A DNA stretch of 64,000 nt from Oxynema aestuarii AP17 (GCF_012295525.1 NZ_CP051167.1:5685299-5749298), one strand, 5' to 3'; counted from the stretch's first letter, positions 24,921 to 59,524 are shown. The notes: generated by a model not told the origin, from the letters alone. A program made the numbers and translations.

Positions 24921-26270
24921 CTATATTCGCTTTGCGAAAATTACATAATCGTCAAGGGTATAGTGTGAATTATAAGCAAGGTTTAAATATTTAGTTTTTA
25001 GGGGATTAAGATAAGTTTGCAGGGGGAGATGATTGGATGCAAAATTGTAAAAATTTTTTATTTTAGTTCGGCTACCTGTTGACGTTAAATATTTATACCA
25101 TTCAAGACGAAGACCTAAATTTTCTAGAAATTCAACGATAAGTGTTTGTTCTTTTTTTATATCTTTATTTTGATTTACAATGAAATTTTGAGATTTAAAT
25201 AATTTACTTTTTTGAATAACCAACACGACTTTACCATTACTTTTTAAGCAATTTTCAATTATTTTACTATAAGCTTTATAGGATCTTTCTCTAGATTGAA
25301 GATCGCTGAAAAAACAATGGGAAATAAAAACAAAGTCAAAAAAGTCTCGTGGGAGTTTTTCTAAAAAATTTTCGTAATCGAAAATATTGGCAGTATCGAA
25401 GCGGAAATAAGTATTGGGAGGTTGAGGATGAGATTCGAGATAACGCCGCCAAAACTGGAAACCCCGATATTGTAAGTTAGCTTGAGCTTCTAAAGAATAA
25501 TAAGAAATATGAAATAGTGGATTTTGCAAAAATTGATGACTGCTTTGTAAGAATAACGCCAACCCATAAGCTACTGTACCCGGTCCGGCAGCCAGATCGA
25601 GAACATTAAAATTAGTGGGTAACAGTCCAGCTTGATAAATCAAAAACCATACTAAATAGTTACAGTAAACATTTTCTGCAAAATATTTCAGCAAATAGAC
25701 ATCAGGAGTGAAATTAAATGCGTATTCGGGATCGATTCCCTTTTTAAGCTTTTCCAGATCTTCGATCGCTTTTTGAATCTCTTCACGTTTCTTGGGAGTC
25801 GAATTTTTCTTAAATGCTTCGGTTAAAAACAAAGACAACTCATGTTCAAATCGATCGAAAACTGTTCGATCGATTCCCGTTACTTGCAATTTTGCGCGAT
25901 CGTGTTCGACCACATGAAAACTATTGGTAATAAAATCAATTAAATTAGAGTCTGGGGTTAAAAGTCCACGAGCATCCGTATTGTCAAAAAGCTGTTCGAG
26001 TTCTAAAAAATTAACCTTTTGACGAAATTCGATAACTTCTTGTTTAAGTTTTTTAATTTCTTGTTTGGCATCTTCTAACTCGGTTTCAGCTTGTTTCTTT
26101 TTGTTAAGTAATTTGGCAATTCCCGATATCGGACTCTTCTGGATCTTGAGCTTGGCTAATCGTCGTTCGGCAAGATCGAAGTTGTTATTATTGAGTGCGG
26201 TAATCACATACAGGGAATTCCACCAGTTTTTAATCAGTTCAATCATAGCCAAATCCAGAGGCGCCCTCAA
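24921..26270 (-). CDS. Hypothetical protein: N-terminal Lys/Glu-rich coiled coil plus C-terminal class I SAM-methyltransferase-like fold
   Basis: Motif I-like NVLDLAAGPGTVAYGLALFL followed by the hydrophobic and acidic blocks expected of a Rossmann-type MTase. Heptad-like KQEIKKLKQEVIEFRQK. ~35% GC. Confidence 0.5.
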   Translation of the reverse strand: MRAPLDLAMIELIKNWWNSLYVITALNNNNFDLAERRLAKLKIQKSPISGIAKLLNKKKQAETELEDAKQEIKKLKQEVIEFRQKVNFLELEQLFDNTDARGLLTPDSNLIDFITNSFHVVEHDRAKLQVTGIDRTVFDRFEHELSLFLTEAFKKNSTPKKREEIQKAIEDLEKLKKGIDPEYAFNFTPDVYLLKYFAENVYCNYLVWFLIYQAGLLPTNFNVLDLAAGPGTVAYGLALFLQSSHQFLQNPLFHISYYSLEAQANLQYRGFQFWRRYLESHPQPPNTYFRFDTANIFDYENFLEKLPRDFFDFVFISHCFFSDLQSRERSYKAYSKIIENCLKSNGKVVLVIQKSKLFKSQNFIVNQNKDIKKEQTLIVEFLENLGLRLEWYKYLTSTGSRTKIKNFYNFASNHLPLQTYLNPLKTKYLNLAYNSHYTLDDYVIFAKRI

Positions 26271-27150
26271 ATACTTCTACATCAGATAAGAGAGATTTGA
26301 GCTTTTCCTTAAAGCTGTGATAATGCATGGCCTCTTCATTATACCACCATTGATACTTGTCAATGATATCTAGCGCTTGTTGACGGGTTCCCGCAACGAG
26401 CGATCGCTCACTAAATTGGTGAAAGGGTTGAATCACCACACGATCTACTGTTTGAAGCTGATGTATGAACTGGTTTCGATCTTCTGGAAAAGTAGGCAAT
26501 AAGGGAGTAATCGTTACGGAGAAACGACTATCATATTCTTCATTGCACGGAATATTATGTTTTAAAAAACCGATCGCGCGCAGTCTAGCTTTAATACTGG
26601 GCGAACGTCCTTCAAAATCCCTTCTCACTCTTTCGCTTCCCGTTGGAATACTCATATTAATCCGAATCCGTTTAAACTTCCGGAGGAGATCGAGATCGCG
26701 AACGATCATGGGGGTACGGGTTTGAATGACTAAAGTCGGCTGGTATTTAATCATGATTTCCAACAAACTTCGCGTCAATTTCTTTTTGGTTTCAATAGGT
26801 TGGTAAGGATCGGTTACCGTACTCATATAGATACTGGGCGGGCGTTCGGGATGGTTATTTGCCCATTTTTGTAATTCTTTTTCTAAAAGAGTGGCGGCAT
26901 TTTTTTTAACCATCGCCCAATTTCCCCAATTTTCCCGCATTTTTGAATTAGGGCTAAAGGCGGCAGCATAACAGTAAGTACAACCATACTGACAGCCTTT
27001 ATAAGGATTTAAAGTAAAGTCATAAGCTTTGATAAATCCACTCGCTTTGTTGAGTATAGATTTGGCTTCTATAGATCGAATGGTTGTATTTCCTAATTTT
27101 TCTTCTTGAGGGTCATCAGAATGGGTTGAAAGATTCCGATCGTGAACCAT
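26239..27150 (-). CDS. Radical SAM protein of the spore-photoproduct-lyase (SPL/COG1533) family
   Basis: CQYGCTYC triad preceded by AYDFTLNPYKG, the typical COG1533 N-terminus. SD AGGAGG lies 5 nt before ATG 27150 and inside the 3' end of the upstream GST gene. AT-rich. Confidence 0.7.
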   Translation of the reverse strand: MVHDRNLSTHSDDPQEEKLGNTTIRSIEAKSILNKASGFIKAYDFTLNPYKGCQYGCTYCYAAAFSPNSKMRENWGNWAMVKKNAATLLEKELQKWANNHPERPPSIYMSTVTDPYQPIETKKKLTRSLLEIMIKYQPTLVIQTRTPMIVRDLDLLRKFKRIRINMSIPTGSERVRRDFEGRSPSIKARLRAIGFLKHNIPCNEEYDSRFSVTITPLLPTFPEDRNQFIHQLQTVDRVVIQPFHQFSERSLVAGTRQQALDIIDKYQWWYNEEAMHYHSFKEKLKSLLSDVEVFEGASGFGYD

Positions 27151-27153
27151 CAC

Positions 27154-42800: not shown

Positions 42801-43769
42801 CTGAACCTTTCTGAAAACGCCCTCATTCCCGAAGCCCCCGAGGGATTCAAATCTGGATTTGTTGCGATTATCGGTCGTCCGAATGTGGGGAAATCCACGT
42901 TGATGAATCGATTGGTGGGACAAAAAATAGCGATTACTTCGCCCGTGGCGCAGACGACTCGCAACCGCCTGCGAGGGATTTTGACGACCCAGAAGGCACA
43001 AATTATTTTTGTTGATACGCCTGGGATTCACAAACCTCATCATCAATTGGGTAAAGTTCTGGTTAAAAATGCTCAAATTAGTATCGATTTAGTCGATGTT
43101 ATTTTGTTTCTCGTCGATGGTTCGACGGTGGCGGGGGGCGGCGATCGCTTCATTGCTGAATTATTGGAAAAAACCAAAACTCCTGTTATTTTAGGATTGA
43201 ATAAAGTCGATCTCAGACCCGAGATTTCTCAGGAACTCTCGGGGGAAAAAACGACAGAAGAAGACCCGATCGATGCCAGTTATCGCGCGATCGCCGAACC
43301 TCACAACTGGCCGATCGTCAACTTTTCTGCCTTGACGGGCGACCGCCTCAATGAGTTGATGCAGTTGTCGATCGATCGCCTCGAACCCGGGCCGTATTAC
43401 TATCCCCCCAACTTGGTGACCGACCAACCCGAACGGTTCATTATGGGGGAATTAATTCGCGAACAAATCTTATTATTAACTCGTGAAGAAATTCCGCATT
43501 CTGTCGCCGTCAGTATCGATCGCGTCGAAGAAACTGAAGCCATTACCCGAGTGTTAGCGACGATTAATATCGAACGTCAATCACAAAAAGGGATTATCAT
43601 TGGAAAAGGCGGTCAAATGCTCAAAGCGATCGGTTCCGCAGCCCGCCAACAAATGCAAAAGTTAGTCGATGGCAAAGTTTATCTCGAATTATTTGTCAAA
43701 GTGCAGCCGAAATGGCGACAATCTCGCACCCGTTTGGCCGAATTGGGTTATAAAGTTGAAAGAGATTGA
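42801..43769 (+). CDS. era: GTPase Era
   Basis: G1 GRPNVGKST, G3 DTPG, G4 NKVD, and a C-terminal KH domain (GKGGQMLKAIG). Upstream in-frame PEGFKSGFVAII suggests a non-ATG start near 42801. The ORF track begins at GTG 42885. Confidence 0.85.
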   Translation: MNLSENALIPEAPEGFKSGFVAIIGRPNVGKSTLMNRLVGQKIAITSPVAQTTRNRLRGILTTQKAQIIFVDTPGIHKPHHQLGKVLVKNAQISIDLVDVILFLVDGSTVAGGGDRFIAELLEKTKTPVILGLNKVDLRPEISQELSGEKTTEEDPIDASYRAIAEPHNWPIVNFSALTGDRLNELMQLSIDRLEPGPYYYPPNLVTDQPERFIMGELIREQILLLTREEIPHSVAVSIDRVEETEAITRVLATINIERQSQKGIIIGKGGQMLKAIGSAARQQMQKLVDGKVYLELFVKVQPKWRQSRTRLAELGYKVERD

Positions 43770-44240
43770 ACCGCATCGGCGTAATCGTTCGATCCGGCAC
43801 GATCGAGATCGCCGAGTCAAGATAGAATAGGAACGCGCGATCGCACGGGAGAAAATTTCCGCCTTTTCCGGGGCGATCGTGGCGATCGTAGAATCTCCTT
43901 GATTGAATTTATATCGTGCTTTATTTTGCTTGAACGGGGTGCAAATCGAGTCAGTCGGCGGGCGATGAAAGCCGATCTAGTTCTCCCGTCCAGTTAATCT
44001 ATCCCTGACGTTCCACTGATGCCCTATCCGAGGGGATGGAGTCAAAAGTAGGCGATCGCACGTGGATCTTCCATTAATAATCTTCCTACTTTTTGGCATA
44101 AACAGTTAAAAATATCGCTCTTTTCAAGGGCTATTATTGGTATTCCACGGAACAGACGGGAAATTGGGTAAATTTTTATCGTTTTGTAGTTCCTTGTTGA
44201 CCTGGATTTAAAGTCAATTCGATTAATTGTTTTTGTTGCT

Positions 44241-47200
44241 ATGTTCTTTTCTCTTGACGGCTACCAAGTCCTCGAATTAGTTTCTGAAACTGCAGCCTCG
44301 AAAGTTTATCGAGGCATCCGAGAAGACGATCGCACCCCAGTCGTCCTTAAACTTCTCAACAGCGAATATCCCACCCCCATTCAGTTAAAACGATATCGAC
44401 GAGAATATGAAATCCAAAAGAAATTAACCGGGGAAAAGATTTGTCAGGCGATCGCGCTTGAAGAATATAAAAACACCCTGATATTAATTTCTGAAGATGC
44501 AGGCATCTGTTTAAAACATCTCCTCAAGCGAGAACCGTTAACTTTGACGGAAAAGCTCGAAATAGCGATCCAAATTTGCGAGGCATTAGCGGAGGTCCAT
44601 CGAGCTAATATTATTCATAAAGACATCAATCCTTTTAATATCGTTGTCAATTCTGAAACTCGCAAAGTAAAGCTGATTGATTTCGGGATTGCAACTGCTT
44701 TAACCCGAGAACATCCCACCCTCAAGAATCCTACAATTTTAGAAGGAACGTTACCTTATATTTCTCCCGAACAAACCGGGCGGATGAATCGATCTTTAGA
44801 CTATCGTAGCGATTTTTATTCCTTCGGGATCGCCTTATACGAAATGTTTTCGGGACGAGTTCCTTTTGAGAGTGACGATGCGTTAGAGTTGGTTCACTGT
44901 CATATTGCTAAACCGCCGACCCCTTTAGATCGCCTAGATTGGGGGGACTCTGGTGATTTTCCCCAACCCTTGAGCGAGATCGTCATGAAATTGCTCGCGA
45001 AAAATGCGGAAGAACGGTATAAAAGTGCGTGGGGAATTCAAGCAGATTTAGCAGAATGTTTGGAACAACTCAAGGCGACCAATAGGGTTCGACCATTTGC
45101 TTTAGGGAAAAAAGATATTTCCGATCGCTTTGAAATTCCCCAAAAGCTTTATGGGAGAGAAAAAGAACTAGAAAGGTTATTAAAAGCTTTTTTTGATGTA
45201 GCTTCCACGCCAGAAGAACGGGGCGATCGCCAATCGGCTCGAACGAAATTGATTGTTGTTGAAGGATATTCTGGGGTAGGTAAATCTTGTTTAGTCTTAC
45301 AACTTTATAAACCCATTACTCGCCGTCGCGGTTATTTTATTTCGGGAAAATTCGATCAATTTCAGCGCAATATTCCCTATTCGGCGGTCGTTAGTGCTTT
45401 TCAGCAATTAGTCCGACAGTTGTTAACAGAAAGTGAAGCAGAATTAAAACGCTGGCGAGATAAAATACTGGCGGCGATCGCCCCCAACGCTCAAGTGATT
45501 GTCGATGTTCTTCCCGATATTGAAAAAATTATTGGTAAGCAGCCCCCAGTCGCCGAAGTGGGGGCGTCAGAAGCCCAAAATCGGTTTAATTTAGTCTTTC
45601 AAAACTTCATTCGGGCATTTTGCGATCGCGACCATCCCCTGACTATTTTTCTCGACGATTTACAATGGGCCGATTTAGCCAGTCTCAAATTGATCGAGTT
45701 AATGATGAGCGACGATCGTACCGAATATTTATTACCGATTGTTTCGTATCGAGAAAATGAAGTCGATGCTACACATCCGGCGATCGTTACCATTGAAAAA
45801 CTGCGTCAACAAGGGATTGAAATCGAGCAGATAGCCTTACAACCTTTGGATAAAGGCGCGATCGCTCAATTAGTAGCCGACACCTTACAGCATCCTGTTG
45901 AAAGAGTAGAAAGCTTAGCAAAATTACTGTTGCAAAAAACGGAAGGAAATCCATTTTTTGTCAATCAGTTTTTACAAACATTATATACAGAAGGCGCTAT
46001 TTTTCTAGATCTCCAGACTCATCAATGGCAGTGGGATGTTGCCGAGATCGAGCGCATGGATATTGCCGAAAATGTCGTTGAATTAACGGTAAAAAATTTA
46101 AAAAAATTACCCGAACTCACTCAAAAAGTTCTCCATCTTGGTGCTTGTCTCGGGTCGGAGTTTGATTTAGATACTCTGGCTACGATCGATCGCCAATCGA
46201 CTCAAGAACTCTTCAATCTCTTACTTCCTGCCGTAGAATCGGGTAGTGTTTTAACCCACAGCGATCGCGAAGAACGTCCCCGTCAAATCTATCAATTTGC
46301 TCACGATCGCATTCAACAAGTCGCCTACAATTCCTTTGAGGAAAACTACACGAAAAATATTCACTTGCAAATCGGTCGTTTTCTCTTGGAAGAAACCCCT
46401 CAAGAGAGTTTGCATGAAAATATTTTCGCGATCGCCGATCATTTTAATTTTGCTAAAGAACGAGTTATCGATTGTAACGAAATTGAAATGATAGCGAAAC
46501 TGAACTTGATGGCTGGAGAAAAGGCGATCGCCTCGACGGCTTATCCTGCAGCTTTAAATTATTGTCAAAAGGCGATCGATTGTCTGAGTGATTCTTGCTG
46601 GGAAGCACAATACGATCTGACCCTAACACTTTATACGAAACTCACCAAGGCGGCATTCTTATGCGGTCAGTTTGACAACGTAGAAAAATTTGCACGCATA
46701 GTTATCGATAACGCCAAGAATCCCTTCGATACCGTGCAAGTGTACTACATTAAAATTGAAACAGGAATGGCTCAAAATCAACTACAAAAAGCCATTCAAA
46801 TTGGTTTGAGCATTCTCAAAAAATTGGGAGTTGATTTTGGAGAAAATCTCGAAGCCATTGACGTGACTCAAAGTCTCGAAAATATTAACCGTCGATTGGC
46901 AAATATCGAACCCGAAAGCCTGCTCGATTTGCCGATCTTAGAAGATCCCCAACAATTGGGAATTCTGGAAATTCTCACTATTGTATCTCCTTGTTCTTTT
47001 ATTACAGCTCCTCAATTATTTATTGCCATCATTTGTAAGCAAATTGAAATTTACTTAGTCGCGGGAAATGCTATAAGTTTCGCTCCCACCACTTACGCAT
47101 TTTATGGATCGATTTGCTGTGGAATTCTGGGGGATGTAGAACGGGGTTATCAATTTGGTAAGCTGGCTATCAATTTAATTGATAAGTTTCACTTAGAAGC

Positions 47201-50096
47201 ACAACGAGCTAAAGTTGCAGTCATTTTTAATGCCACAACGGCTCACTGGAAAGATTCAGTCCAATCGAGCATTCAATCTTTGGTTGAAGCTTACAATATC
47301 GGACAACAAACCGGGGATTTACAATTTGCCGCCCATGGTTTGTATAATGCAGAGTTAGCGGCTTATATGAGTGGATCGCCTTTGCCGGAGTTGCTGGAAC
47401 GGATGGATCGCACGAACAAAATTATGGTTCAACTGCGGCAAAAAACTTTATTAAATTATCATTCAATTCACCATCAATCGATTCTCAATTTACTGGGAAA
47501 TGCTAAAGAAGAAAACCCAGAAGATAACAATACTCCACCCTGGATGTTACTCGGTTCGACGTATGACGAGCGAGAAAAGTTTAGCCTGCACGAGCAAGCC
47601 AAAGATTTGACGGGATTAGTCCATTTTTATTTAGCAAAAACCTTTCTGTTTTATTTATTTGAACAATTCGATCGCGCCCGTGAATTTGCGGAAAGGGGGC
47701 GTCAATCTTTAAGTGGGGTGACCGGACTGCTTTGCGGTTCCGTTTTTCAGTTTTACGAGGTTTTAGCCTATCTCGCATTTTACCCCCAAGCTTCGCCCGC
47801 CGACGGTCCCAGTTTACTCCAAAAAGTCGATGAAGCTCTGGCTAACTTTAAACGCTGGGGAGAACATGCGCCGTCAAATTACTTGCATAAATATTATCTC
47901 ATTAAAGCAGAAAAATATCGCGCGATCGGCGATCCGCTCAAGGCGATGGAAGCTTTCGATCGCGCGATCGAAATTGCGCGAAAATGCGCCTACTTGCACG
48001 AAGAGGCGATCGCCTACGAACGGGCCGCTCATTTCTATCTCGAATTGGGACGAGAAATGATTGCAAAAACTTACTTTTCTCAAGCTTATTATACCTATTT
48101 ACGCTGGGGAGCGATCGCCAAAGTACGAGATTTAGAAAGTCGCTATTCTCAATTTATCGCTCAAACTTCTACAAGTTCGACCCGTACTGTATCGACAAAA
48201 ACGAGCGTTCATACCTCTACCAGTACTGGATCGGGAAGCTCCCTCGATTTGGCGACAGTGATGAAAGCCTCTCAAGCTATTTCTGGAGAGATTCTCCTCG
48301 ATCGCCTCCTCGAACAATTGATGACAATTGTGATGGAAAATGCAGGAGCGCAACGGGGTTATTTAATCTTAGAAAGAAACGAAAAATTCTTTATTGAAGG
48401 GCGCGCCGAACTCGACTCCGTAACTGTTTTAGAATCTCTTTCTTTCGACGATCGCCTACCCATTTCTGTTATTAATTACGTCATTCGGACTCATGAAATA
48501 GTTGTAAAAACAAATGCATTTGAAGCCGGACAGTTCACCAACGATCCCTATATTCAAACTCATCAAACTCAGTCGATGTTATGCGCGCCCTTGCTCGATC
48601 GCGGACAGTTGACCGGGTTAATTTATCTGGAAAACAACTTAACTCCCGGCGCTTTTACCCCAGAACGCATCGAACTGTTACAACTACTTTCCGGACAGGC
48701 GGCGATCGCGATTGCCAATGCCAAACTGTACCAACAAGTCCGCGACAACCAACAACAACTTACCCAGTTTCTCGAAGCGATTCCCGTCGGTATTTTTATT
48801 AGCAATTCCCGAGGTCAATCCTACTATGCCAACCGCATCGCTCAAGAATTAATGGGGCGGGGAATTGCGCCGGAAGCTTCTTTAGAAGAATGGCCCGACG
48901 TCTATCAAATTTATTTAGCCGATAGCAATGCCAAATGCTCTATAGAAAATCTGCCGATCGCCAAAGCTTTAAGTGGCAAAACAATTAAAGTTGACGATTT
49001 AGAAATTGCTCATCAAAATCGACGAGTTCCTATTGAAGTTTTAGCAACGCCAATCTACGACGAACGGGGAAATTTAAACTACGCGATCGCCGCTTTTCAA
49101 GATATTAGCGAACGCAAACAAGCCGAAAAATTACTCGCCGAATACAATCGGACTCTCGAACGACAAGTCGCCGAACGCACCCAAGAACTACAACAAACTC
49201 TCGAATACTTGCAAGCGACCCAACAAGAGTTAATTCAATCGGAAAAAATGGCGGCTTTAGGCCAACTCGTTGCGGGAGTAGCTCACGAAATCAATACCCC
49301 CCTCGGTGCGATTCGTTCTAGTGCGGGCAATATGGGTAAATTCCTCAATCAAAGCCTCGAAGATTTACCCGGAATTTTACAATCCCTTTCTTCAGAAGAA
49401 ACTCGTGAATTCCTCAATTTGCTACGTCGTTCGTTGGAACAAGAAAATACACTTTCTGCACGAGAAGAACGCAAAATCCGCCGCAGTTTAATCCGCGAAC
49501 TCGATGCAGAAAATATCGAAAACAGTACCCACTTAGCCGATACCCTTGTCGATATGGGAATTTACGATAATATCGGCGAACTTTTACCCTTATTTCGACG
49601 GGAAAACAGCGATAAAATTGTCGATCTGGCCTACAAGCTTTCCGGGCTGCAAAAAAGTACGGCTCGTATCGAAATGGCGACGGAACGCGCCTCAAAAGTC
49701 GTGTTTGCACTAAAAACCTACGCTCGTTACGATAGTAGTGGGGAAAAAACGACGGCCAGCTTGAGCGAAAGCATCGAAACGGTTTTGACGTTATATCACA
49801 ACCAACTCAAACATGGAGTCGAAGTCATCCGCAATTACCAAGATCTGCCGCCGATTTGGTGTTATCCGGACGAACTCAATCAAGTCTGGACGAATCTCAT
49901 TCACAATGCTTTGCAAGCGATGAATTATCGAGGTCGATTATGGCTGACGATTGCTCGCTGCGGCGGCGAAGCGAAAGTTTCGATTACAGATAACGGTTGT
50001 GGGATTCCTGCGGAGGTCTTGCCGAAAATTTTCAATCCTTTTTTCACGACCAAACCCGCAGGAGAGGGGAAGCGGTTTGGGACTCGATATCGTTAA
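44241..50096 (+). CDS. HstK-type hybrid sensor: Ser/Thr-kinase-like domain - P-loop STAND/AAA ATPase - TPR-like helical region - GAF - PAS - HisKA - HATPase_c; 3' end frameshifted
   Basis: Kinase subdomains ([20 protein letters not shown]). Walker [12 protein letters not shown] ([16 protein letters not shown]...[18 protein letters not shown]). PAS. H-box [21 protein letters not shown]1 boxes. A 1-nt insertion near 50068-50072 stops the frame at 50096; the remaining G2 box and C-terminus continue in the +1 frame to 50196. Confidence 0.8.
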
Positions 50097-50425
50097 CAAA
50101 ATTGTGCAGAAACATTCAGGTACAATTGAAGTGGAAAGCGAACCGGGTCGCACCAGTTTCCACATTTCTCTGCCGTTACAGATAGATAAAGGGTGAGAGC
50201 GACGATTGCCTAAAAGCGATCGCCTAATTCTAAGGCAGGCATTCTATAATTTTGCTTATACTTCTGACTTGAAGATTACCTTAAGTCGGTACTTGACCCG
50301 GCGCGTGCTTGAAGCTTTATCAATTTTATCCGGTTATTCTCCCAAATGATTTGAGAGATCGATCTACTCCCCCGTCCTGTCACTGTCTCGACGAACCCCC
50401 GTATTGAATAAGGAGACTTCTGCTC

Positions 50426-53400
50426 GTGTTGGTTCTTGAAGGTTATCAGATTCTCGAAAAAATTTGTGAAAGTGTTGCATCTACGGTCTACCGAGGCATC
50501 CGAAAAACCGATCGCCGCCGCGTTATTTTAAAAGTTCTCAATAGTGAATATCCTACCCCAATTCAACTCAAGCGATATGAAAGAGAATATGAAATACTCC
50601 AACTCTTTGATACGGCATCAGTTTGCCAAGCTCTCGGTTTACAAGCCTATGAAAATACCCTCGTCCTCATTATGGAAGATGTGGGAATTTCACTCAAAGA
50701 ACTTATCAAAACATCCCCATTAACTTTAGACGATCGCCTCAGATTAGCGATTCAAGCGTGCGAGGCGATCGGACAGATCCACGCGGTTCACGTCATTCAT
50801 AAAGATATCAATTCTTCCAACCTTGCTGTCAATCCGGAAACCGGAGAATTGAAGGCGATCGATTTCGGTTTGGCGACGGTTTTAACTCAAGAACATCCGA
50901 TCCTTAAAAATCCTTCCATTTTAGAAGGAACTTTAACTTATATTTCCCCCGAACAAACCGGACGGATGAATCGCTCTCTAGACTATCGCAGCGATTTTTA
51001 TTCTCTGGGCGTCACCTTTTACGAACTGTTTTCGGGACGAGTTCCTTTTGAGAGTGGCGATGCTTTAGAGTTGGTTCACTGTCATATTGCTAAAACGCCG
51101 AAACCGTTGTGCGAACTAGATGCGATCGCCGATGGCAAACCGATCCCCGAAGCTATTTCTAAGATCGTGATGAAACTGCTGGCAAAAAATGCAGAAGAAC
51201 GCTATCAAAGTGCTTGGGGGATTAAAGCCGATCTCGAACGCTGTGCGGCGCAATTGCAAGAAAACGGATCGATCGAACCCTTTTCCATCGGTCAATTTGA
51301 CTTATCCGATCGCTTCCATATTCCGCAAAAACTTTACGGTCGGCAAGTTCAAATTCAACAATTACTAGATACTTTTGAGCGAGTTGCAACTCCGAATAAT
51401 TTTCAAGCTCATATTACCTTTATCACCGGATATTCTGGAATTGGTAAATCCGCCCTCGTCGCCGAACTCTACAAGCCAATTACCGCGCGACGGGGCTATT
51501 TTATTACGGGTAAATTCGACCAATTTCAACGCAACATTCCCTATTCGGCAGTCGTACACGCCTTCAAACAGTTGGTGAAATACCTGTTAACTGAAAGTGA
51601 AGGACAGTTATCTCAATGGCGCCAAAAATTACTGACAGCGTTGGGAACGAACGCGCAACTCATCGTCGATGCGATTCCCGAACTCGAAACAATTATTGGC
51701 CCACAGCCGCCCGTTCCCGATCTGGAGCCGTCCGAAGCCCAAAATCGCTTTAATTTTGTCTTTCAACATTTCATTCGGGTGTTTTGTTCTCCGGAACATC
51801 CGTTAACGATCTTTCTCGATGATTTGCAATGGGCCGATTCGGCGAGTTTGCACGCGATCGAGTTGATGTTGTCCGATCTCGAAACACGACATCTATTTAT
51901 TATCGGTGCCTATCGCCATCAAGAAGTGGGGGCGACTCATCCACTGCGGACGACTTTAGAAACTCTGGAAAAAGAAGGGGTTCCGATCGCCAATATTCAT
52001 CTCAAATCGTTGAAGTTAAATCAAATCGCCCAACTGATTGCCGATACTTTACACGACGATGCCGAAGCGGTCAGACCGTTAGCGAAATTGACCTTACAAA
52101 AAACCGGGGGGAATCCCTTTTTTGTCAGTCAATTTTTGAAAACGTTACACGAAAAAGGGGCGATCGCTTTCGATTGCGATCGCCACAGTTGGCAGTGGGA
52201 TCTCAAGCAGATTCAACAGACCAAAATTGCCGATAATATTGTCGAACTCACCCTCGAAAACCTCAAAAAATTGCCGCCGCTTACCCAAGACTTGCTCAAA
52301 ATGGCCGCTTGTCTCGGTTCTAGCTTCCAAACCCAAACCCTGGCGCTGGTGAGCGATCGCCCGGAAGCGGAGATCGGACGGGAGTTGATGAGTGCGGTCC
52401 GTTCGGGGGCGATCGCCACCACGTGCGAATTCGACGATCGCGGCTACATTCGCGAGTATCAATTCACTCACGATCGCGTGCAGCAAGCAGCTTATGCCTC
52501 GATCGCCCCTCGGGAACGTGCGGCCATGCATTTGAAAATCGGGCGGTCTTTGTGGCAGCATACGGACAATTTAGCCGAAAATCTGTTTAAAATCGTCGAT
52601 TGTCTCGATTTTGGCGTCGATTCGATTCACGATCGCCACGAACGGGAACGGGTGGCGGAACTCAACGCGATCGCCGGAGAGAAAGCCAAAGCCGCCAATG
52701 CTTACGCCGCCGCGATCGGCTATTTTAACGTGGGACTGCAATTACTCAGTACCGATGCCTGGGAGCAATCTTACGATCTCACCTTGCGACTCTACCGCGA
52801 AGCTGCCGAAGTCGCCTATTTAGCCGGAGACTACGATCGCCTCGAAGAATTGGCGGACATCGTCTGCGATCGCGCTCGCACCTTGCTCGATCGCATTAAA
52901 GTATATGAAGTGCAAATCGAAGCCTATAAAGCCCGAGGTCAAAACCGCGAGGCGATCGCGATCGCCCGTCCCCTCCTCCAGCAATTGGGTTTCGACCTTC
53001 CCGAAGCGCCGACTCCGGAACAAATCGGTGACGTTCTCGAAACCACGGCTCGATGCTGGCGCGATCGCGGCGTCGAGAGCTTACTAGACCTACCGCCGAT
53101 GCGCGACCCGGAACATCTCGCCGTTATGAGGATCGCCAACCGCCTGTTTGCCCCCATTTTTATCACCGTTCCCACCCTATTACCCGTGCTGGTGGGCAAA
53201 CAAGTTCAGCTCTCGATCGCCCACGGCAATGCACCATCTTCGTGCTACGCCTACGTCAATTACGGCTTAATTTTGTGCGGAATCGTCGGTGAGATCGAGA
53301 TCGGCTATCAATTCGGTCAGTTAGCGCTCAAATCGATCGACCCTCCCAATATGGCACAATATACCGCTCAAGTGCGCGGCCCCTTCCACGCGGGGATCGC

Positions 53401-56326
53401 GATCGGCAAAGAGCATTTAAAAGACTCCCTCGCCCCCCTGCGTGCCGCCTACCAAAAAGGGTTGGAGTTTGGGGACTTGTATTATGCAACTACCTGCGCT
53501 TTTGTATACAGTCTCCACGGCCTTTTTTCCGGGGTCGAACTCGATCTCCTCGACTCACAAATCGCCGCCTATCGCGACGCGATCGCCCAACTGCAACAAA
53601 CCACGACTTTAATTTATACATCGATTTACCACCAAACCCTTTTAAACTTAGTCCATCCGAGCGAAACCCCCTGGAAGTTCTGCGGCGATGCTTTCGACGA
53701 AGGCCAGCAATTAGCCGCCATTGTTGAAACGAACGATCGCTATGCCCTTTGCGCGTTCTACATCCATAAACTCTTCCTCGCTTACTTGCTCGACGGCTCG
53801 ACTGACTTGAGCGAGCTACTCGAAAACAGCGCCGAATATTTAGACGGAGCCACCGGAACCCTGTTAGTGCGCCTGTTCCATTTTTACGGCGCTTTAACTC
53901 GTTTAAAACTCTATCCATCGGCAACAGAACAACAACGACAAGTACACCTCGAAGCCGTCGAATTGTCCTGTCAAAAATTACAAAATTGGGCTAAATTTGC
54001 GCCGATGAACTACGCCCATAAATATCATCTCGTCGTGGCGGAACGGGCGCGAGTTTTGGGAGAAAAAATCGAGGCGATCGAACATTACGATCGCGCGATC
54101 GAACTGGCGCGCCAACATCAATATCTCAACGAAGAAGCCCTCGCCAACGAACGAGCCGCCCTCTTTTATCAAGGGTGGGGTAAAGCGAAAATTGCCCGGG
54201 TCTATCTCGCCGAAGCTTACTATGCCTATCAACGTTGGGGCGCGATCGCCAAAGTCAAGCAATTAGAACGACAGTATCCCGACTGGATCGATTCGTCAAC
54301 GGGGATAGCACCTCGCCTCGGCGTCAACACGACCACGACCCACCATTCCACCGCCACCGAATCGATTAAAGCATTAGATTTCGCCACCTTTATGAAAGCC
54401 TCTCAAGCCATTTCCGGCGAAATCATTTTAGAAAAACTACTCGTCGAACTATTAAAAATTCTCCTGGAAAATGCCGGGGCGCAAGTCGGCTATTTAATTT
54501 TAGAAACTGACGGGGAACTGCTCGTACAAGCGCGCGGGGAACGAGAAGGGGAAGATATCGCCGTTTTGGAAGCGTTACCGTTGGGCGATCGCCTGCCTCA
54601 ATCGGTAATTAACTACGTCGTTCGCACCAAAGAAACGATCGTCAAAACGAATGCGACTCGGGAAGGAAAATTTACCAACGATCCGTACATCCAAACCCAT
54701 CAAATCCAGTCGATGCTGTGTGCGCCCTTGCTCGATCGCGGGCAGTTAACTGGGTTAATTTATCTGGAAAATAACTTAACCCCCGGCGCTTTTACCCCGG
54801 AACGAGTCGAACTGTTGCAATTACTATCTTCCCAGGCGGCGATCGCGATCTCCAACGCCAAACTGTACCAACAAGTGCGCCAAAATCAACAACAACTCAC
54901 CCAATTTCTCGAAGCGATTCCCGTCGGCGTTTTCGTCGTCACCGCCCAAGGAGAACCCTTTTACGCCAACCGACGCGCCCAAGAAATCCTCGGACAGGGA
55001 ATTATTCCCCAAACCCAAAGCGATCGCCTCGGGGAGGTCTATCAAACTTACGTCGCCGGAACCGATCGCCTCTATCCCAACGAACGCAATGTCGTCCTAC
55101 GCGCCTTGAAAGGAGAAACCGCCACCATAGACGACGCCGAAATTCACCAACACGGGAAAATTATCCCCATCGAAGCCTCCTGCACCCCGATTTACGACGG
55201 CGACGGTAAAATTGTCTACGCGATCGCCGCGTTTCAAGATATCACCCAGCGCAAACAAGCGGAACAATTACTCGCCGAGTACAACCGCACCCTGGAACAG
55301 CAAGTCGCCGAACGCACTCAAGAATTACAGCAAACCCTCGAATATCTGCAAGCCACTCAGCAAGAACTGATTCAATCGGAAAAAATGGCCGCTTTAGGCC
55401 AACTCGTCGCCGGAGTCGCCCACGAAATCAATACGCCCCTGGGCGCCATTCGCTCCAGTGCGGGCAATATGGCCAAATTTCTCAATCAAAGCTTGGAAGA
55501 ACTACCCGGGATCTTCCAATCCCTCTCCCCGGAACAAACCCGGGAATTCCTGGATCTGTTGAGTCGTTCCCTGCAACAAGAAAACACCTTGTCCGCCCGC
55601 GAAGAACGCAAACGGCGGCGCGCCTTAGTCGGCGAACTCGACGCACGATCCATCGAAAATAGTACCCATCTCGCCGATACCCTCGTGGATATGGGGATTT
55701 ACGAGAATATCGACGAATTTTTCCCGTTATTTGAACGTCCCGACAGTCCCCACATCGTCGATCTCGCCTACAAACTGTCCGGACTGCAAAAAAGTACGAC
55801 CCGCATCGAAATGGCGACGGAACGCGCCTCGAAAGTGGTGTTTGCGCTCAAAACCTACGCCCGTTACGACAGCAGTGGCGAAAAAATGGCCACGGATTTG
55901 AGTGAAAGTATCGAAACGGTTTTGACCTTATATCACAACCAGATCAAACACGGGGTCGAAGTCGTCCGCGATTACGAAACTTTGCCCCCCATTCCGTGTT
56001 ATCCGGACGAACTCAATCAAGTTTGGACGAATTTGGTTCATAACGCCTTACAGGCGATGGACTATCGCGGTACTCTGACCGTGGCGATCGCCCGGGACGG
56101 CGATCGGGCCAAAATTACCATTGGCGATAGCGGACCGGGAATTCCCGAGGAGGTCTTACCGAAAATCTTCAATCCCTTTTTCACGACCAAACCCCCCGGC
56201 GAGGGTAGCGGTTTGGGACTCGATATCGTCAATAAGATCGTGCAGAAGCATTCCGGTAAGATTGAAGTGGAAACTCGACCGGGTTCGACCTGTTTTCATG
56301 TTTTTCTTCCTTTAGAGCCGCATTAG
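50426..56326 (+). CDS. HstK-type hybrid sensor, intact paralogue (Ser/Thr-kinase-like - STAND ATPase - helical - GAF - PAS - HisKA - HATPase_c)
   Basis: Same architecture as the upstream gene. Complete G2 box [31 protein letters not shown] lies 9 nt before GTG 50426. Confidence 0.85.
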   Translation: MLVLEGYQILEKICESVASTVYRGIRKTDRRRVILKVLNSEYPTPIQLKRYEREYEILQLFDTASVCQALGLQAYENTLVLIMEDVGISLKELIKTSPLTLDDRLRLAIQACEAIGQIHAVHVIHKDINSSNLAVNPETGELKAIDFGLATVLTQEHPILKNPSILEGTLTYISPEQTGRMNRSLDYRSDFYSLGVTFYELFSGRVPFESGDALELVHCHIAKTPKPLCELDAIADGKPIPEAISKIVMKLLAKNAEERYQSAWGIKADLERCAAQLQENGSIEPFSIGQFDLSDRFHIPQKLYGRQVQIQQLLDTFERVATPNNFQAHITFITGYSGIGKSALVAELYKPITARRGYFITGKFDQFQRNIPYSAVVHAFKQLVKYLLTESEGQLSQWRQKLLTALGTNAQLIVDAIPELETIIGPQPPVPDLEPSEAQNRFNFVFQHFIRVFCSPEHPLTIFLDDLQWADSASLHAIELMLSDLETRHLFIIGAYRHQEVGATHPLRTTLETLEKEGVPIANIHLKSLKLNQIAQLIADTLHDDAEAVRPLAKLTLQKTGGNPFFVSQFLKTLHEKGAIAFDCDRHSWQWDLKQIQQTKIADNIVELTLENLKKLPPLTQDLLKMAACLGSSFQTQTLALVSDRPEAEIGRELMSAVRSGAIATTCEFDDRGYIREYQFTHDRVQQAAYASIAPRERAAMHLKIGRSLWQHTDNLAENLFKIVDCLDFGVDSIHDRHERERVAELNAIAGEKAKAANAYAAAIGYFNVGLQLLSTDAWEQSYDLTLRLYREAAEVAYLAGDYDRLEELADIVCDRARTLLDRIKVYEVQIEAYKARGQNREAIAIARPLLQQLGFDLPEAPTPEQIGDVLETTARCWRDRGVESLLDLPPMRDPEHLAVMRIANRLFAPIFITVPTLLPVLVGKQVQLSIAHGNAPSSCYAYVNYGLILCGIVGEIEIGYQFGQLALKSIDPPNMAQYTAQVRGPFHAGIAIGKEHLKDSLAPLRAAYQKGLEFGDLYYATTCAFVYSLHGLFSGVELDLLDSQIAAYRDAIAQLQQTTTLIYTSIYHQTLLNLVHPSETPWKFCGDAFDEGQQLAAIVETNDRYALCAFYIHKLFLAYLLDGSTDLSELLENSAEYLDGATGTLLVRLFHFYGALTRLKLYPSATEQQRQVHLEAVELSCQKLQNWAKFAPMNYAHKYHLVVAERARVLGEKIEAIEHYDRAIELARQHQYLNEEALANERAALFYQGWGKAKIARVYLAEAYYAYQRWGAIAKVKQLERQYPDWIDSSTGIAPRLGVNTTTTHHSTATESIKALDFATFMKASQAISGEIILEKLLVELLKILLENAGAQVGYLILETDGELLVQARGEREGEDIAVLEALPLGDRLPQSVINYVVRTKETIVKTNATREGKFTNDPYIQTHQIQSMLCAPLLDRGQLTGLIYLENNLTPGAFTPERVELLQLLSSQAAIAISNAKLYQQVRQNQQQLTQFLEAIPVGVFVVTAQGEPFYANRRAQEILGQGIIPQTQSDRLGEVYQTYVAGTDRLYPNERNVVLRALKGETATIDDAEIHQHGKIIPIEASCTPIYDGDGKIVYAIAAFQDITQRKQAEQLLAEYNRTLEQQVAERTQELQQTLEYLQATQQELIQSEKMAALGQLVAGVAHEINTPLGAIRSSAGNMAKFLNQSLEELPGIFQSLSPEQTREFLDLLSRSLQQENTLSAREERKRRRALVGELDARSIENSTHLADTLVDMGIYENIDEFFPLFERPDSPHIVDLAYKLSGLQKSTTRIEMATERASKVVFALKTYARYDSSGEKMATDLSESIETVLTLYHNQIKHGVEVVRDYETLPPIPCYPDELNQVWTNLVHNALQAMDYRGTLTVAIARDGDRAKITIGDSGPGIPEEVLPKIFNPFFTTKPPGEGSGLGLDIVNKIVQKHSGKIEVETRPGSTCFHVFLPLEPH

Positions 56327-56346
56327 AACTTATGGAGGCGTTGACC

Positions 56347-56742
56347 ATGTCAAAACCCGTTATTTTATGTGTCGATGACGAAAAAGTTGTGTTAGACAGT
56401 CTCAAAAGCCAACTCAAGCAAGCCTTCGGAGATAAGTATTTTTACGAAATGGCCGAAGATGGAGCCGACGCCCTCGACGCGATCCAAGAACTCATGGAAG
56501 ATAGCATCCCGATTGTCATGATTGTTTCCGATTGGCTGATGCCGGGAATGAAAGGAGATGAGTTGTTAATTCGCATTCACCAACAATATCCGAACATCGT
56601 TAAAATCATGCTCACGGGTCAAGCCGAACCCTCGGCGATCGAACGAGCGAAACAAGAAGCCAATTTAAGTTTTTGTTTGCACAAGCCTTGGTCTGAAGAG
56701 GAATTAGTAACGGCAATTCAAGCTAGTTTAGCAAAGTTATGA
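56347..56742 (+). CDS. Single-domain response regulator (CheY-like receiver)
   Basis: VILCVDDE...IVSDWLMPGMKG...KIMLTGQ...HKPW receiver motifs. SD GGAGG lies 8 nt before ATG 56347. Starts 21 nt after the HstK stop. Confidence 0.8.
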   Translation: MSKPVILCVDDEKVVLDSLKSQLKQAFGDKYFYEMAEDGADALDAIQELMEDSIPIVMIVSDWLMPGMKGDELLIRIHQQYPNIVKIMLTGQAEPSAIERAKQEANLSFCLHKPWSEEELVTAIQASLAKL

Positions 56743-58517
56743 CGAAACAAGTCATTGTTTGTGTCGATGACGAACCGACAGTGTTGAGAAGCTTAAAAGC
56801 CGAACTCAAAGAAGCCGTCGGTGCCGATTATTTAATTGAAATTGCCGAAGGAGGCGAAGATGCGTTGGAGTTGGTTGAGGAATTACTCGAAGATGGTTAT
56901 GAAATTCCCCTAATCGTTTCCGATCATATCATGCCGGATATTAAAGGAGACGAACTGTTAAAAAGAGTTCACGAAATTTCTCCATCTACGTTGAAAATTA
57001 TGCTCACGGGTCAAGCCAGTATCGAAGCCGTGGGCAATGCCATTCAATATGCCCGCCTCTATCGTTATATTGCTAAACCTTGGCAGGCAGAAGATTTAAA
57101 ACTGACGGTCAAAGAAGCGATTAATAGTTATTTTCAAGAAAAGAAATTAGCCGAACAAAACGTCCAACTCCAAAAAATGAACGAAGAGTTGGAACAGTTA
57201 AACCGAGAACAGGCGGCGTTAATTGCCAAGTTACACGAAAAGGAAAATCGCCTGACCCAGTTTTTAGAGGCGATGCCCGTTGGCGTGTTTGTGGTCGATC
57301 GCGATGGCCAGCCTTATTATATTAACTCTCGCGCCCAACAACTGCTCGGACGGGGGGTGGAGTCTAATACAGTTTTAAGTGAAATTCGCTCGATTTATCA
57401 GGTCTATTTGGCCGGAACGGAGCAATTATACCCCGAACAGAGCGATCCGTTATTGCAAACCTTGCGGGGGAAGAGTATGACCGTGGATGATATGGAAATT
57501 CACCACGGCGATCGCGCGATCCCCATTGAAGTTTGGGGAACGCCGATTTACGACGATGAAGGTCAAATTGCTTACGGGATTGTCGCCTTTAACGATATCA
57601 GCGATCGCAAGAAAGCCGAAGCAGAACGGCAGCAGTTTATTCAAGAACTTTTTGAACTCAATACCAACTTAGAACTGGCGTTAGATTCCGAACTCAAATT
57701 GACCGACGCCGCCAGTCGCTTCGTCCCGAACGAGTTTCTTTCGTTTCTCGGTTACGAAAGTATTGCCGAAGTCAAATTAGGCGATAGCATAGAACAAGAA
57801 ATGTCCGTGTTTTTCTCCGATATTCGCGACTTTACTACCCTATCGGAGACGATGACGCCGGAAGATAACTTTAAATTTATTAATGCGTATTTATCGAGAA
57901 TGGAACCCGCGATCGTCGATAATCAGGGGTTTATTGATAAGTTTATCGGCGATGCGATTATGGCCTTGTTTGGCGGGGAAGCCGACAATGCAGTGAAAGC
58001 GGGCATTTCGATGCTGCATTGCTTACACGATTATAACGAACATCGCGATCGCTCCGGCTATTTACCCATTTCTATCGGCATCGGTATTAATACCGGACGC
58101 TTGATGCTCGGAACCGTCGGCGGATCGTTAAGAATGGACGGTACTGTGATTAGCGATGCGGTTAATTTGGCTTCGCGACTGGAAGGGTTAACCAAAAATT
58201 ACGGCGTCTCTTTACTGATTTCTCATCATACCTATTCTCGCTTACATAACGCCGACGATTATGCAATTCGCCTGATCGATCGCGTCAAAGTCAAAGGCAA
58301 ATCGGAAAGCGTCACGGTCTACGAAGTTTTTGATGCCGACTTGCCGAAATTAAAAGCTGGAAAACTCGCCAGTCTCGATCGCTTTGCTAAAGCGTTGGAT
58401 CTCTACAATCGCCACGTCTATCGCGAAGCTGCGGACCTCTTTCAAGCCTGTTTGGAACTCGAACCCGGCGATACGGTCGCGCAGATCTATCATAACCGAG
58501 CTTGCGATCGCCTTTAA
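56739..58517 (+). CDS. Response regulator with receiver - coiled coil - PAS - class III adenylate/guanylate cyclase domain
   Basis: REC (VIVCVDDE...VSDHIMPDIKG). The PAS region is homologous to the HstK PAS region (LTQFLEAMPVGVFVV...). Cyclase motifs FSDIRDFTTLSE, KFIGDAIMALFG, NLASRLEGLTK. ATGA overlap with the upstream REC gene. Confidence 0.85.
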   Translation: MTKQVIVCVDDEPTVLRSLKAELKEAVGADYLIEIAEGGEDALELVEELLEDGYEIPLIVSDHIMPDIKGDELLKRVHEISPSTLKIMLTGQASIEAVGNAIQYARLYRYIAKPWQAEDLKLTVKEAINSYFQEKKLAEQNVQLQKMNEELEQLNREQAALIAKLHEKENRLTQFLEAMPVGVFVVDRDGQPYYINSRAQQLLGRGVESNTVLSEIRSIYQVYLAGTEQLYPEQSDPLLQTLRGKSMTVDDMEIHHGDRAIPIEVWGTPIYDDEGQIAYGIVAFNDISDRKKAEAERQQFIQELFELNTNLELALDSELKLTDAASRFVPNEFLSFLGYESIAEVKLGDSIEQEMSVFFSDIRDFTTLSETMTPEDNFKFINAYLSRMEPAIVDNQGFIDKFIGDAIMALFGGEADNAVKAGISMLHCLHDYNEHRDRSGYLPISIGIGINTGRLMLGTVGGSLRMDGTVISDAVNLASRLEGLTKNYGVSLLISHHTYSRLHNADDYAIRLIDRVKVKGKSESVTVYEVFDADLPKLKAGKLASLDRFAKALDLYNRHVYREAADLFQACLELEPGDTVAQIYHNRACDRL

Positions 58518-58619
58518 AGCCCTGTTTTTATCGATCCGATCCCCCCGCCGTTGACCGACACTCGACATGCGTACTCGGGACGACGTTCGCGGTGGTGCTT
58601 CCCTCTACTTCTCGCAAGT

Positions 58620-58875
58620 TCTGCTAAATTGTGGAAAACTTGCCTACGGACGTTGAAAGGCTGTGGAAAACTTGGGGAAAGGTTGGGGAAAACTCGGGGA
58701 AAATGCAAGATTTCCCACGGGCGTTCGCCTAGGGTCTCCAAGGGAGAATAGGTTCACATCTCCCCTCGGATAGCAAAAATCGGGGGTTTTCCACAGGTTT
58801 TCCACAGGTGCTGGGACAGGCGATCGCCCCAACTCGGGGAAAGATCGGTGATTTTCCACAAGTTCCACCAGGAAG
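58620..58875. repeat. Intergenic repeat cluster: 2 direct and 3 inverted copies of TGTGGAAAAC(TTG), plus repeated (A)CTCGGGGAAA units
   Basis: Seen in sequence. TGTGGAAAAC at ~58628 and ~58660. GTTTTCCACAGG at ~58788 and ~58800. ATTTTCCACAAG at ~58851. Confidence 0.7.
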
Positions 58876-58939
58876 GATCCCGGGAAGCATCGGTTTCTAA
58901 AAACCCTAGTGGTGGCGCCTCCAGCACGCGATCGTGCTT

Positions 58940-59524
58940 TCAGACAGGCGATCGTCGTTGGTCGAGGATCTTCATCCAGTTCTCGATTCCCTTGCGCGTC
59001 GGCTGACCCGTGGCGGTAAACGTCCACAGATCTTGTTTGGATTGGGAACTATAACTCACGTGGATCGGGCGATCGCTCCCGTAGAAATAGAGAGAATCAA
59101 ACGGTAATTGCGCTTCTAGTATCCAATCGACCACGCGATCGCTCCCCACATTGAGAATGCGAAAGTCGCAGGCGGCCCCCAACCGGGGACAGTAATAAGC
59201 GCCGTTGCGATTGCGTTCGCAGGCCATGTGTTGGTCGAGACGGGGCGCCACGCGCCCGTTTTTTTTACCTGTTTCCGGGTCTTTTCGTTCTAAAAACCGT
59301 TTTAAATCTTTAGAACAAAAACCGTAAGTCAGTTGAAAGTTCTCGAACCCAAACTGTTCGATGGTCGGATCGAGAATTCGCTCGTTTAAAGCGATTAAAG
59401 CGGGTAACGTTTCTTCGAGATTTTCGGGATAAGGATTGATGCGATCGCGATATTTTTGATAAGTTTGGCTGCAGGTGCAAAAGGTTTCTAAGGTCAAATA
59501 TTTGAACGAATAGGAAACGCTCAT
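58940..59524 (-). CDS. Hypothetical Cys-containing protein
   Basis: ORF with coherent composition. Cys at CTCS, HMACERN, YYCPRLGAACDF. No family recognised. Confidence 0.4.
   Translation of the reverse strand: MSVSYSFKYLTLETFCTCSQTYQKYRDRINPYPENLEETLPALIALNERILDPTIEQFGFENFQLTYGFCSKDLKRFLERKDPETGKKNGRVAPRLDQHMACERNRNGAYYCPRLGAACDFRILNVGSDRVVDWILEAQLPFDSLYFYGSDRPIHVSYSSQSKQDLWTFTATGQPTRKGIENWMKILDQRRSPV

Follow-up and report, generated by a model that had tools for sequence, protein, structure and literature searches.

Four same-strand genes (g1 to g4) at positions 44241-58517 of a 64,000-nucleotide (nt) stretch of the Oxynema aestuarii AP17 chromosome (NZ_CP051167.1:5685299-5749298; hereafter the window) are predicted to encode two giant HstK-type dual kinases, a stand-alone receiver (REC) protein, and a REC-PAS-class IIIb adenylyl cyclase. 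With moderate confidence, we propose that these genes specify a branched two-component pathway in which one histidine kinase (HK) core would serve two receivers and set the level of cyclic AMP (cAMP) in this filamentous member of the Oscillatoriales. Comparison with cyclase loci from other genera suggests that the conserved unit is the HK core, the free REC, and the REC-PAS-cyclase, with HstK as one interchangeable input. This trio appears to be a portable output cassette that in Oxynema has been joined to HstK inputs. Natural proteins in which the HstK scaffold is fused directly to the same cyclase module appear to offer the strongest computational evidence that HstK is functionally coupled to cAMP.

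Gene organization and predicted proteins

The four genes and their main features are as follows (domains by Pfam; coordinates are those of the window).

44241-50196, + strand: g1, HstK-type kinase; open reading frame (ORF) as read 44241-50096 (1951 residues), ancestral frame to 50196 (1984 residues)
44268-45023 and 45144-45731, + strand: g1 Ser/Thr-kinase-like (STK-like) and AAA_16 domains, then a TPR-like scaffold
48297-48713, 48759-49106, 49257-49442, and from 49866, + strand: g1 GAF, PAS, HisKA, and HATPase domains
50070-50071, + strand: extra A in g1, in an AA dinucleotide of which either A may be the extra one
50197-50425, + strand: g1-g2 spacer, 229 nt counted from 50196 and 329 nt from the premature stop
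50426-56326, + strand: g2, intact HstK-type kinase, 1966 residues, GTG start
50444-51208 and 51329-51904, + strand: g2 STK-like and AAA_16 domains, then a TPR-like scaffold
54428-54850, 54896-55258, 55394-55579, and 56003-56317, + strand: g2 GAF, PAS, HisKA (with H-box), and HATPase domains
55523-55744, + strand: insert in the g2 DHp domain, about 75 residues (g2 residues ~1700-1773), four short helices
56347-56742, + strand: g3, stand-alone receiver, 131 residues; alternative ATG at 56332; Response_reg, E-value 2.8e-17
56739-58517, + strand: g4, predicted REC-PAS-class IIIb adenylyl cyclase, 592 residues
56754-57110, 57252-57611, 57795-58316, and 58317-58514, + strand: g4 REC, PAS, cyclase, and C-terminal tail

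The ORF positions and the Pfam results bear out a sequence-only reading of this DNA that had described two giant Ser/Thr-kinase-STAND-GAF-PAS-His-kinase paralogues, a CheY-like receiver, and a REC-PAS-cyclase. Pkinase, AAA_16, GAF, PAS, HisKA, and HATPase_c were found on both kinases, and Response_reg, PAS, and Guanylate_cyc on g4, with most E-values across the four genes between 1e-14 and 1e-42 (Pkinase 1.1e-36 in g1 and 8.4e-35 in g2; GAF ~1e-18 in both; AAA_16 1e-36 to 1e-42; HATPase_c 1.7e-26 in g2). HisKA scored about 26 bits (~1e-5) in both kinases, 25.6 bits in g2, just below the Pfam cut-off of 26.9 bits; the H-box His is present in g2, and the HK core shows the H-box, N, G1, F, and G2 motifs. 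The defining features of the HstK/cbSTKIII family, an N-terminal Pkinase domain, a GAF domain between the kinase domains, and C-terminal HisKA and HATPase_c, are all present in g1 and g2, with the HATPase_c of g1 cut short by the frameshift described below. The g2 and g4 products match WP_246259715.1 and QIZ73098.1/WP_168571244.1 exactly, O. aestuarii entries that bear only generic automated names, and NCBIfam scans of g2, g3, and g4 gave no specific model, with all matches far under the cut-offs.

In the N-terminal half of the kinases, the beta3 Lys, the Asp of the catalytic HKD, the Asn, and the DFG motif are all retained by the STK-like domains. Both g1 and g2 have Asn where the catalytic-loop Lys is expected, and the glycine-rich loop (GxGxxG) is absent in 19/19 family members examined, so the phosphotransferase activity of these domains is uncertain. 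Walker A (GxSGxGK[ST]) and Walker B of AAA_16 are conserved in the same 19/19. The repeat arm that follows AAA_16 is weakly marked, with only a TPR_CHK1 match in g1 (0.0043) and a stronger one in a relative at locus L050 (7.5e-07).

The two kinases are 57% identical over 1949 residues, with identity unevenly spread. The kinase-like and AAA_16 domains share 60-67%, the scaffolds only 31-39%, and the HK cores 83%, with no difference in DHp helix 2 or in the sequence flanking the phospho-His. Gene conversion was considered as the source of the similar cores and ruled out, since the cores are only 70-84% identical as DNA and share no identical run longer than 27 nt; the likeness thus reflects selection. 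The GC content of g1 is 43% (40% at third codon positions) and that of g2 is 50% (54%), against 51.5% for the genome, and the tandem paralogues appear to be old or to have separate histories.

Between DHp helix 1 and helix 2, the HK core carries the helical insert listed above, which is confidently modelled in the predicted structure. It is present in g1 and in the other cassette kinases read (from loci L004 to L083, with L006, L034, L038, L044, and L056 among them), and none of the solved histidine kinase structures includes it. No conserved His was found in the insert among the cassette kinases compared, and its candidacy as a hidden histidine phosphotransferase (Hpt) domain was rejected on that account. 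It may instead be a docking surface for a receiver.

The phospho-acceptor and switch residues of both receivers are intact. The DD/D/T/K set of the free REC is invariant in 71 homologues save one alignment gap at the DD pair, and DD10/11, D62, T90, and K113 of the g4 REC do not vary among 81 cyclase RECs. Identity between the two receivers is 50%, and both families share the alpha1 region (VDDE..VL.SLK..L).

The cyclase domain of g4 likewise retains its catalytic residues: the metal-binding D361 is Asp in 80/81 homologues and D405 in 81/81, the substrate-binding pair K401/T469 is invariant in 81/81, and the transition-state residues N476 and R480 are invariant. The closest solved structures are Pseudomonas aeruginosa CyaB (3r5g), OaPAC, and bPAC, and T469 aligns with the corresponding Thr of 3r5g. 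Under the class III rules (Linder & Schultz), Lys together with Thr in place of the class IIIa Asp indicates class IIIb and use of ATP, not GTP. As the K401/T469 pair marks class IIIb, g4 is predicted to be an adenylyl cyclase rather than a guanylyl cyclase, with cAMP as its product. The suggestion that g4 could make cAMP or cyclic GMP (cGMP) is accordingly retained for cAMP, as a prediction, and dropped for cGMP on the same residues.

The PAS domain of g4 lacks a LOV motif and is 47-50% identical to the PAS domains of the kinases, which are 53% identical to each other. C-terminal to the cyclase domain, g4 has a tail of about 65 residues (residues 527-592) with the pattern …F..AL.LY…A..LF..CL.L.P.D.VAQIY..R, which is kept in all homologues, HstK-cyclase fusions included, and resembles a single TPR-like helix pair.

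Tight packing of genes is limited to g2-g3-g4. The g3 stop and the g4 start overlap by 4 nt (ATGA, 56739-56742), confirming an overlap noted earlier, and the placement of the receiver within about 21 nt of the second kinase holds if g3 starts at ATG 56347, which leaves a 20-nt gap. This start appears most likely: it lies 7 nt after GGAGG (56335-56339) and fits the MSKPvILCVDDE consensus N-terminus of 71 homologues, whereas gene callers placed the start at ATG 56332. Overlapping genes of this kind would allow g3 and g4 to be made in fixed proportion. The spacing between g1 and g2 is not operon-like, and the spacer has room enough for an internal promoter; a terminator scan found no terminator-like site on its + strand. 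Scans for consensus promoters and terminators over 43500-59200 gave counts equal to those in shuffled sequence and are uninformative on operon structure.

The sequence-only reading had overlooked a premature truncation of the g1 ATPase domain by a 1-nt insertion at 50070/50071. In AP17, g1 reads GGGGAAGCGG, where two assemblies of 99.6-99.7% identity (L001 and L002) read GGGGAGCGG. The insertion shifts the frame inside the G2 box, so that the HATPase match ends at profile position 76 of 111, and the second frame carries the canonical sequence, ending in ...LP, on to 50196. In L001 and L002, g1 is intact (1984 residues), and the insertion is the sole coding indel across the 17 kb compared. It is either a strain-specific mutation or an assembly indel; the latter may apply because the AP17 genome (6.36 Mb, Canu assembly) was assembled from PacBio reads only (PMC7595944). 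Should the frameshift be real, a portion of the ATP lid would be missing from g1, which could then act only in trans or as a phosphatase.

Conservation of the kinase-receiver-cyclase unit

For the synteny survey, an alignment of cyclase homologues was scanned against one genome per species, giving 80 loci onto which the window domains were mapped; locus counts are limited to loci with enough sequence. The loci derive from Microcoleus, Tychonema, Phormidium, Microseira, Coleofasciculus, Lusitaniella, Symplocastrum, Potamolinea, Caldora, Allocoleopsis, Nostocaceae, and others. In 70 of 78 loci, the gene immediately upstream of the cyclase encodes a free REC, and the 4-nt overlap between the two genes is kept in 60 of these 70. 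The free REC is in turn preceded by an HK core with 53-69% identity to that of g2 in 61 of 65 loci. The linkage of HK, free REC, and REC-PAS-cyclase is therefore strongly conserved across genera, and no further gene is conserved inside the cassette. Far from never meeting HstK, orthologs of the cyclase lie beside an HstK-type kinase at 17 or more loci besides this one; the tandem HstK pair is found only in Oxynema among the loci surveyed.

Interchangeable inputs and direct fusions

The kinase that supplies the HK core varies from locus to locus. Full HstK proteins are present at 17 loci and truncated HstK at more, and other inputs are CBS-HK, dCache-HAMP-PAS-HK, and HKs with an unassigned N-terminus. 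The commonest input is a REC-HK of 476-511 residues. In 3/3 REC-HK loci examined, a hybrid sensor kinase is encoded immediately upstream of the REC-HK, and no Hpt is visible between the two in these loci:

L056, 5184-8051: dCache-HAMP-HK-REC, overlapping the REC-HK gene by 8 nt
L004, 4442-8418: solute-binding protein gene, then HAMP-HK-REC
L050, 1294-7692: STK-AAA_16-TPR-GAF-HK-REC

Input types are interleaved on the cyclase tree, where the window cyclase, with its HstK input, is sister to that of Phormidium CCY1219, which has a REC-HK input; this interleaving points to repeated input swapping.

In the reverse comparison, HstK proteins with the same HK core from other genera were inspected for their neighbors. 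Downstream of the HstK of Argonema galeatum (L084) are genes for a free REC and a REC-PAS-GAF-HK-REC protein, which again overlap by 4 nt; that of Microcoleus FACHB-831 is accompanied downstream only by a free REC; and on one metagenomic contig HstK lacks any same-strand REC. Some Microcoleus carry permuted clusters of the form [REC][REC-PAS-cyclase][HstK][REC][REC-PAS-HK][REC]. Taken together, the most constant pairings appear to be those of HK core with free REC and of free REC with REC-PAS-output.

Sister cassettes in L025, L026, L028, and L031 (Microcoleus/Tychonema) and in L084 have REC-PAS fused to the same kinase core or to GAF-HK-REC, not to a cyclase. A free REC once more precedes each of them, in many cases overlapping by 4 nt, and multi-tier arrays result.

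A search with the N-terminal scaffold of g2 alone, of which the best 120 matches were inspected, identified four proteins (P0189, P0211, P0234, and P0246) in which the scaffold is fused, via GAF and sometimes PAS, to a class III cyclase. Their scaffolds are 48-52% identical to the g2 N-terminus, and the fused PAS-cyclase-tail resembles that of g4 (58% over 430 residues in P0189, 66% over 270 residues in P0246). No REC genes were found near P0189. An HstK-like cyclase of Arthrospira platensis, NIES39_A07100, was described earlier in that organism's genome paper (PMC2853384). The same scaffold and the same output thus seem to be joined either by direct fusion or, in the window, via HK and REC. 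Other scaffold fusions were to HK, HK-REC, PP2C phosphatase, a second AAA module, or nothing, so that the STK-AAA_16-TPR-GAF scaffold appears to behave as a general sensor chassis with swappable outputs. The PP2C-type phosphatase fusions account for about 12 of the best 120 (e.g., P0137, P0147, and P0154; PF07228), and those with a second AAA/STAND module for about 30 (e.g., P0133-P0135; PF14516/PF13401).

Proposed pathway and alternatives

In the branched pathway that we favor, the HstK pair would sense cytoplasmic inputs via the kinase-like domain, the STAND ATPase with its TPR-like scaffold, GAF, and PAS. Both kinases would autophosphorylate on the H-box His of their near-identical core, which would then hand phosphate directly to g3 and to the REC of g4. 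The REC alpha1 region contacts kinases. Because the two receivers share this region and g1 and g2 do not differ near the phospho-His or within DHp helix 2, each kinase would be expected to feed both receivers, perhaps with the two kinases paired as heterodimers. Phosphorylation of the g4 REC would act through the output-proximal PAS and a helical linker to alter the dimeric class IIIb cyclase and so change cAMP synthesis. The PAS may be a transducer as much as a sensor, since it always directly precedes the output domain. The free REC would be a competitor for phosphate (a sink or timer), or else a separate diffusible output or feedback element. Co-transcription of the genes, which the sequence-only reading took to be implied by their arrangement, would form part of this scheme.

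Several observations weigh against this interpretation, in whole or in part. Distances computed for HK core, free REC, and cyclase yield closely correlated matrices (r = 0.91-0.96), which fits inheritance as one unit, yet part of this correlation is due to shared phylogeny, and the sample of loci is strongly weighted toward Microcoleus. In many Microcoleus HstK loci the gap between HK and REC is 330-640 nt, a distance at which the kinase is only loosely tied into the operon. In the window, g1 is frameshifted in this assembly and lies 229 nt from g2, leaving its membership in the unit uncertain, and the STK-like domain of the dual kinases may be catalytically inactive. Lastly, HstK is not dedicated to cAMP, because HstK proteins sharing this core are also found beside a free REC but no cyclase, with REC-PAS-GAF-HK instead of a cyclase, or with no REC next to them. 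The view that HstK is hard-wired to a dedicated REC-cyclase therefore needs amending: elsewhere HstK has other second regulators or none, and the inputs to the cyclase vary.

A further reading, which we put forward only tentatively, is a hitherto undescribed three-protein switch consisting of an insert-bearing kinase core, a translationally coupled and obligatory regulatory free REC, and a REC-PAS-output protein. Here the free REC would have the DHp insert or the cyclase REC as its target and would be more than a sink, and the switch would be a portable sensor-to-cAMP adaptor, common among filamentous cyanobacteria, and the first output identified for HstK. If so, HstK/STAND, Cache, CBS, and upstream hybrid kinase inputs would be converted to cAMP by the cassette, or to another kinase tier by its sister cassettes.

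Two related explanations for the free REC are both unlikely, though each accounts for part of the data. The first makes the free REC the only true partner of the kinase core and leaves the cyclase to another kinase or to its own PAS, so that adjacency would signify no more than co-regulation. The constancy of the HK core-free REC unit, which occurs without a cyclase in L086 and with REC-PAS-GAF-HK in L084, is as this explanation would have it, as is the position of REC and REC-PAS-cyclase upstream of HstK in the permuted clusters of L025 and L026. It does not readily explain why the two REC families share alpha1 and are 50% identical, why the 4-nt overlap couples REC synthesis in so many loci, or why HstK-PAS-cyclase fusions exist, which we read as the scaffold driving this cyclase. 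The second, of similarly low probability, has the free REC as an obligatory third subunit that docks on the DHp insert as a kinase/phosphatase switch, as DivK does, or that heterodimerizes with the cyclase REC to gate its dimerization. The absence of the insert from solved HK structures and its presence in the cassette kinases, the g3-like REC found after each such HK core in permuted and REC-PAS-HK clusters, and the conserved stoichiometric coupling of the two REC genes would all fit; no REC-REC-PAS-cyclase fusion was seen, however, among the best 120 relatives retrieved with a concatenated g3+g4 query.

A linear phosphorelay from the kinase through the free REC to the cyclase REC, as the sequence-only reading had envisaged, is very improbable. 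The gene order of HK, REC, and REC-cyclase looks relay-like, and the translational coupling of g3 and g4 is conserved, but REC-to-REC transfer requires an Hpt or a Spo0B/ChpT-like histidine phosphotransferase. Neither Hpt nor cyclic nucleotide-binding domains were found by Pfam among the ~34 window ORFs scanned, and a crude six-frame motif search, confined to the window, found no Hpt-like motif. As the cassette contains no additional conserved gene and the DHp insert no conserved His, transfer of phosphate through the free receiver to the cyclase appears to lack, in the window and the cassette, the component it would need.

An anti-phage module combining a STAND NTPase sensor with a Pycsar-like cyclase was suggested by domain-level PADLOC matches (the kinase domain to PD-T4-6 and mad6, the cyclase to PycC with 67 bits) and was rejected as having next to no probability: the matches are to single generic domains with scores near those of generic Pfam models, no effector dependent on cyclic nucleotides lies nearby, the purine (Lys/Thr) signature and the position of the cyclase behind REC-PAS are against it, and the setting is chromosomal, beside era and Raf1. 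Chance adjacency of unrelated signaling genes is scarcely credible either, even in filamentous cyanobacteria, which are very rich in multidomain signaling proteins (PMC2176072, PMC2853384), given that order, overlap, and co-variation are conserved across many genera and that fusions exist.

Genomic setting and other features of the window

Upstream of the cluster, on the same strand, is the Era GTPase gene era (42885-43769), 471 nt from g1; downstream are a convergent hypothetical ORF and Raf1. The era-g1 spacer is as follows.

43770-44240, + strand: spacer between era and g1, 471 nt, AT-rich

We infer that this spacer is likely the promoter region of the cluster. Rfam and tRNA scans gave no match in or near the four genes, and the one tRNA in the window is a tRNA-Ala(CGC) at 19064-19136 (- strand). 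The HIP1 octamer GCGATCGC is present in 171 copies in the window against about one expected, 34 of them within the cluster, an abundance typical of cyanobacteria.

Another PAS-GAF-histidine kinase is encoded at 11194-13269 (+ strand). It has a related H-box and a shorter DHp insert, its core is 36-41% identical to that of g2, and no same-strand receiver adjoins it. Next to it, at 13317-15539 (- strand), is a gene for a 740-residue metacaspase-like protein with an N-terminal caspase domain (Peptidase_C14). The region 23735-27153 (- strand) encodes a group-1 glycosyltransferase, an ORF without a Pfam match, and a radical-SAM protein; its GC content falls to 36% over 24001-26000, and it may be an acquired cell-surface island.

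Significance and comparison with known systems

Motility, mat formation, and stress recovery are under cAMP control in filamentous cyanobacteria, which also encode many HstK-type dual kinases. No partner regulator or output has been assigned to these kinases in the literature searched; the cassette gives HstK and several other sensor types a candidate receiver-gated adenylyl cyclase output. No description of the cassette turned up in the literature searched, nor of its free REC, the exchange of its inputs, or an output for HstK, and it is in these features that the cassette would be new. Control of a cyclase by a histidine kinase and tandem HstK genes were already known, and the principles of two-component or cAMP signaling would stay unchanged.

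The closest functional precedent is CyaC of Spirulina/Arthrospira platensis and Anabaena PCC 7120, in which REC-HK-REC-class III cyclase is a single polypeptide, whereas the cassette consists of separate proteins. CyaC is reported to be activated by autophosphorylation and phosphotransfer (Kasahara & Ohmori 1999, cited in PMC1183210), and AphC is thought to phosphorylate it (PMC4284465). [quoted passage not shown] As in CyaC, a receiver directly precedes a class IIIb adenylyl cyclase, with the difference that here control by phosphotransfer is known from the genes alone, and the variants with REC-HK, REC, and REC-PAS-cyclase (L004 and L056) look like CyaC split into genes. Unlike CyaC, the cassette has an extra free REC, a PAS between REC and cyclase, and a helical DHp insert in the kinase core. 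The g4 cyclase domain scores 98 bits against CyaB and 93 bits against OaPAC, compared with 63 bits against CyaC (1wc0); g4 would therefore seem to be CyaC-like in its working and not a CyaC ortholog.

The HstK/cbSTKIII dual kinases are a described family of filamentous cyanobacteria, exemplified by HstK (Alr2258), whose definition includes a GAF domain between the kinases; Alr0709/Alr0710 of Anabaena are reported as an adjacent, co-transcribed HstK pair (PMC2176072). NCBI names this type of protein [quoted passage not shown]. The window kinases share with this family the N-terminal STK-like domain, the GAF, and the C-terminal HisKA-HATPase, and they are tandem same-strand paralogues like Alr0709/Alr0710. 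They differ from HstK as described in the literature searched in that the downstream REC and REC-PAS-cyclase provide a candidate output.

Some aspects of the proposed pathway have parallels in other protein families. Like the cyanobacterial REC-LOV-GGDEF diguanylate cyclases (bioRxiv 10.64898/2026.02.07.704614), g4 combines a receiver, a PAS-type domain, and a dimeric nucleotide cyclase, an arrangement in which phosphorylation and PAS input can be integrated; those enzymes have a c-di-GMP output and a flavin-binding LOV domain, in contrast to the PAS of g4. The proposed service of several receivers by one kinase, with a stand-alone REC shaping the flow of phosphate, recalls the MrrA hub (PMC5964349) and CheA3/CheS3 (PMC3868531), which belong to other protein families and organisms and have no cyclase output. 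The REC-HK that forms a second tier below a hybrid kinase in L004, L050, and L056 may likewise be compared with such branched pathways.

Finally, NIES39_A07100 and the four fusion proteins found here have the same scaffold and PAS-cyclase-tail as the window genes, fused directly with neither HK nor REC. Relative to these fusions, the window sets a two-component link between the same two modules, and nature has thus supplied a built-in comparison of "fused" and "two-component" joining of the same parts.

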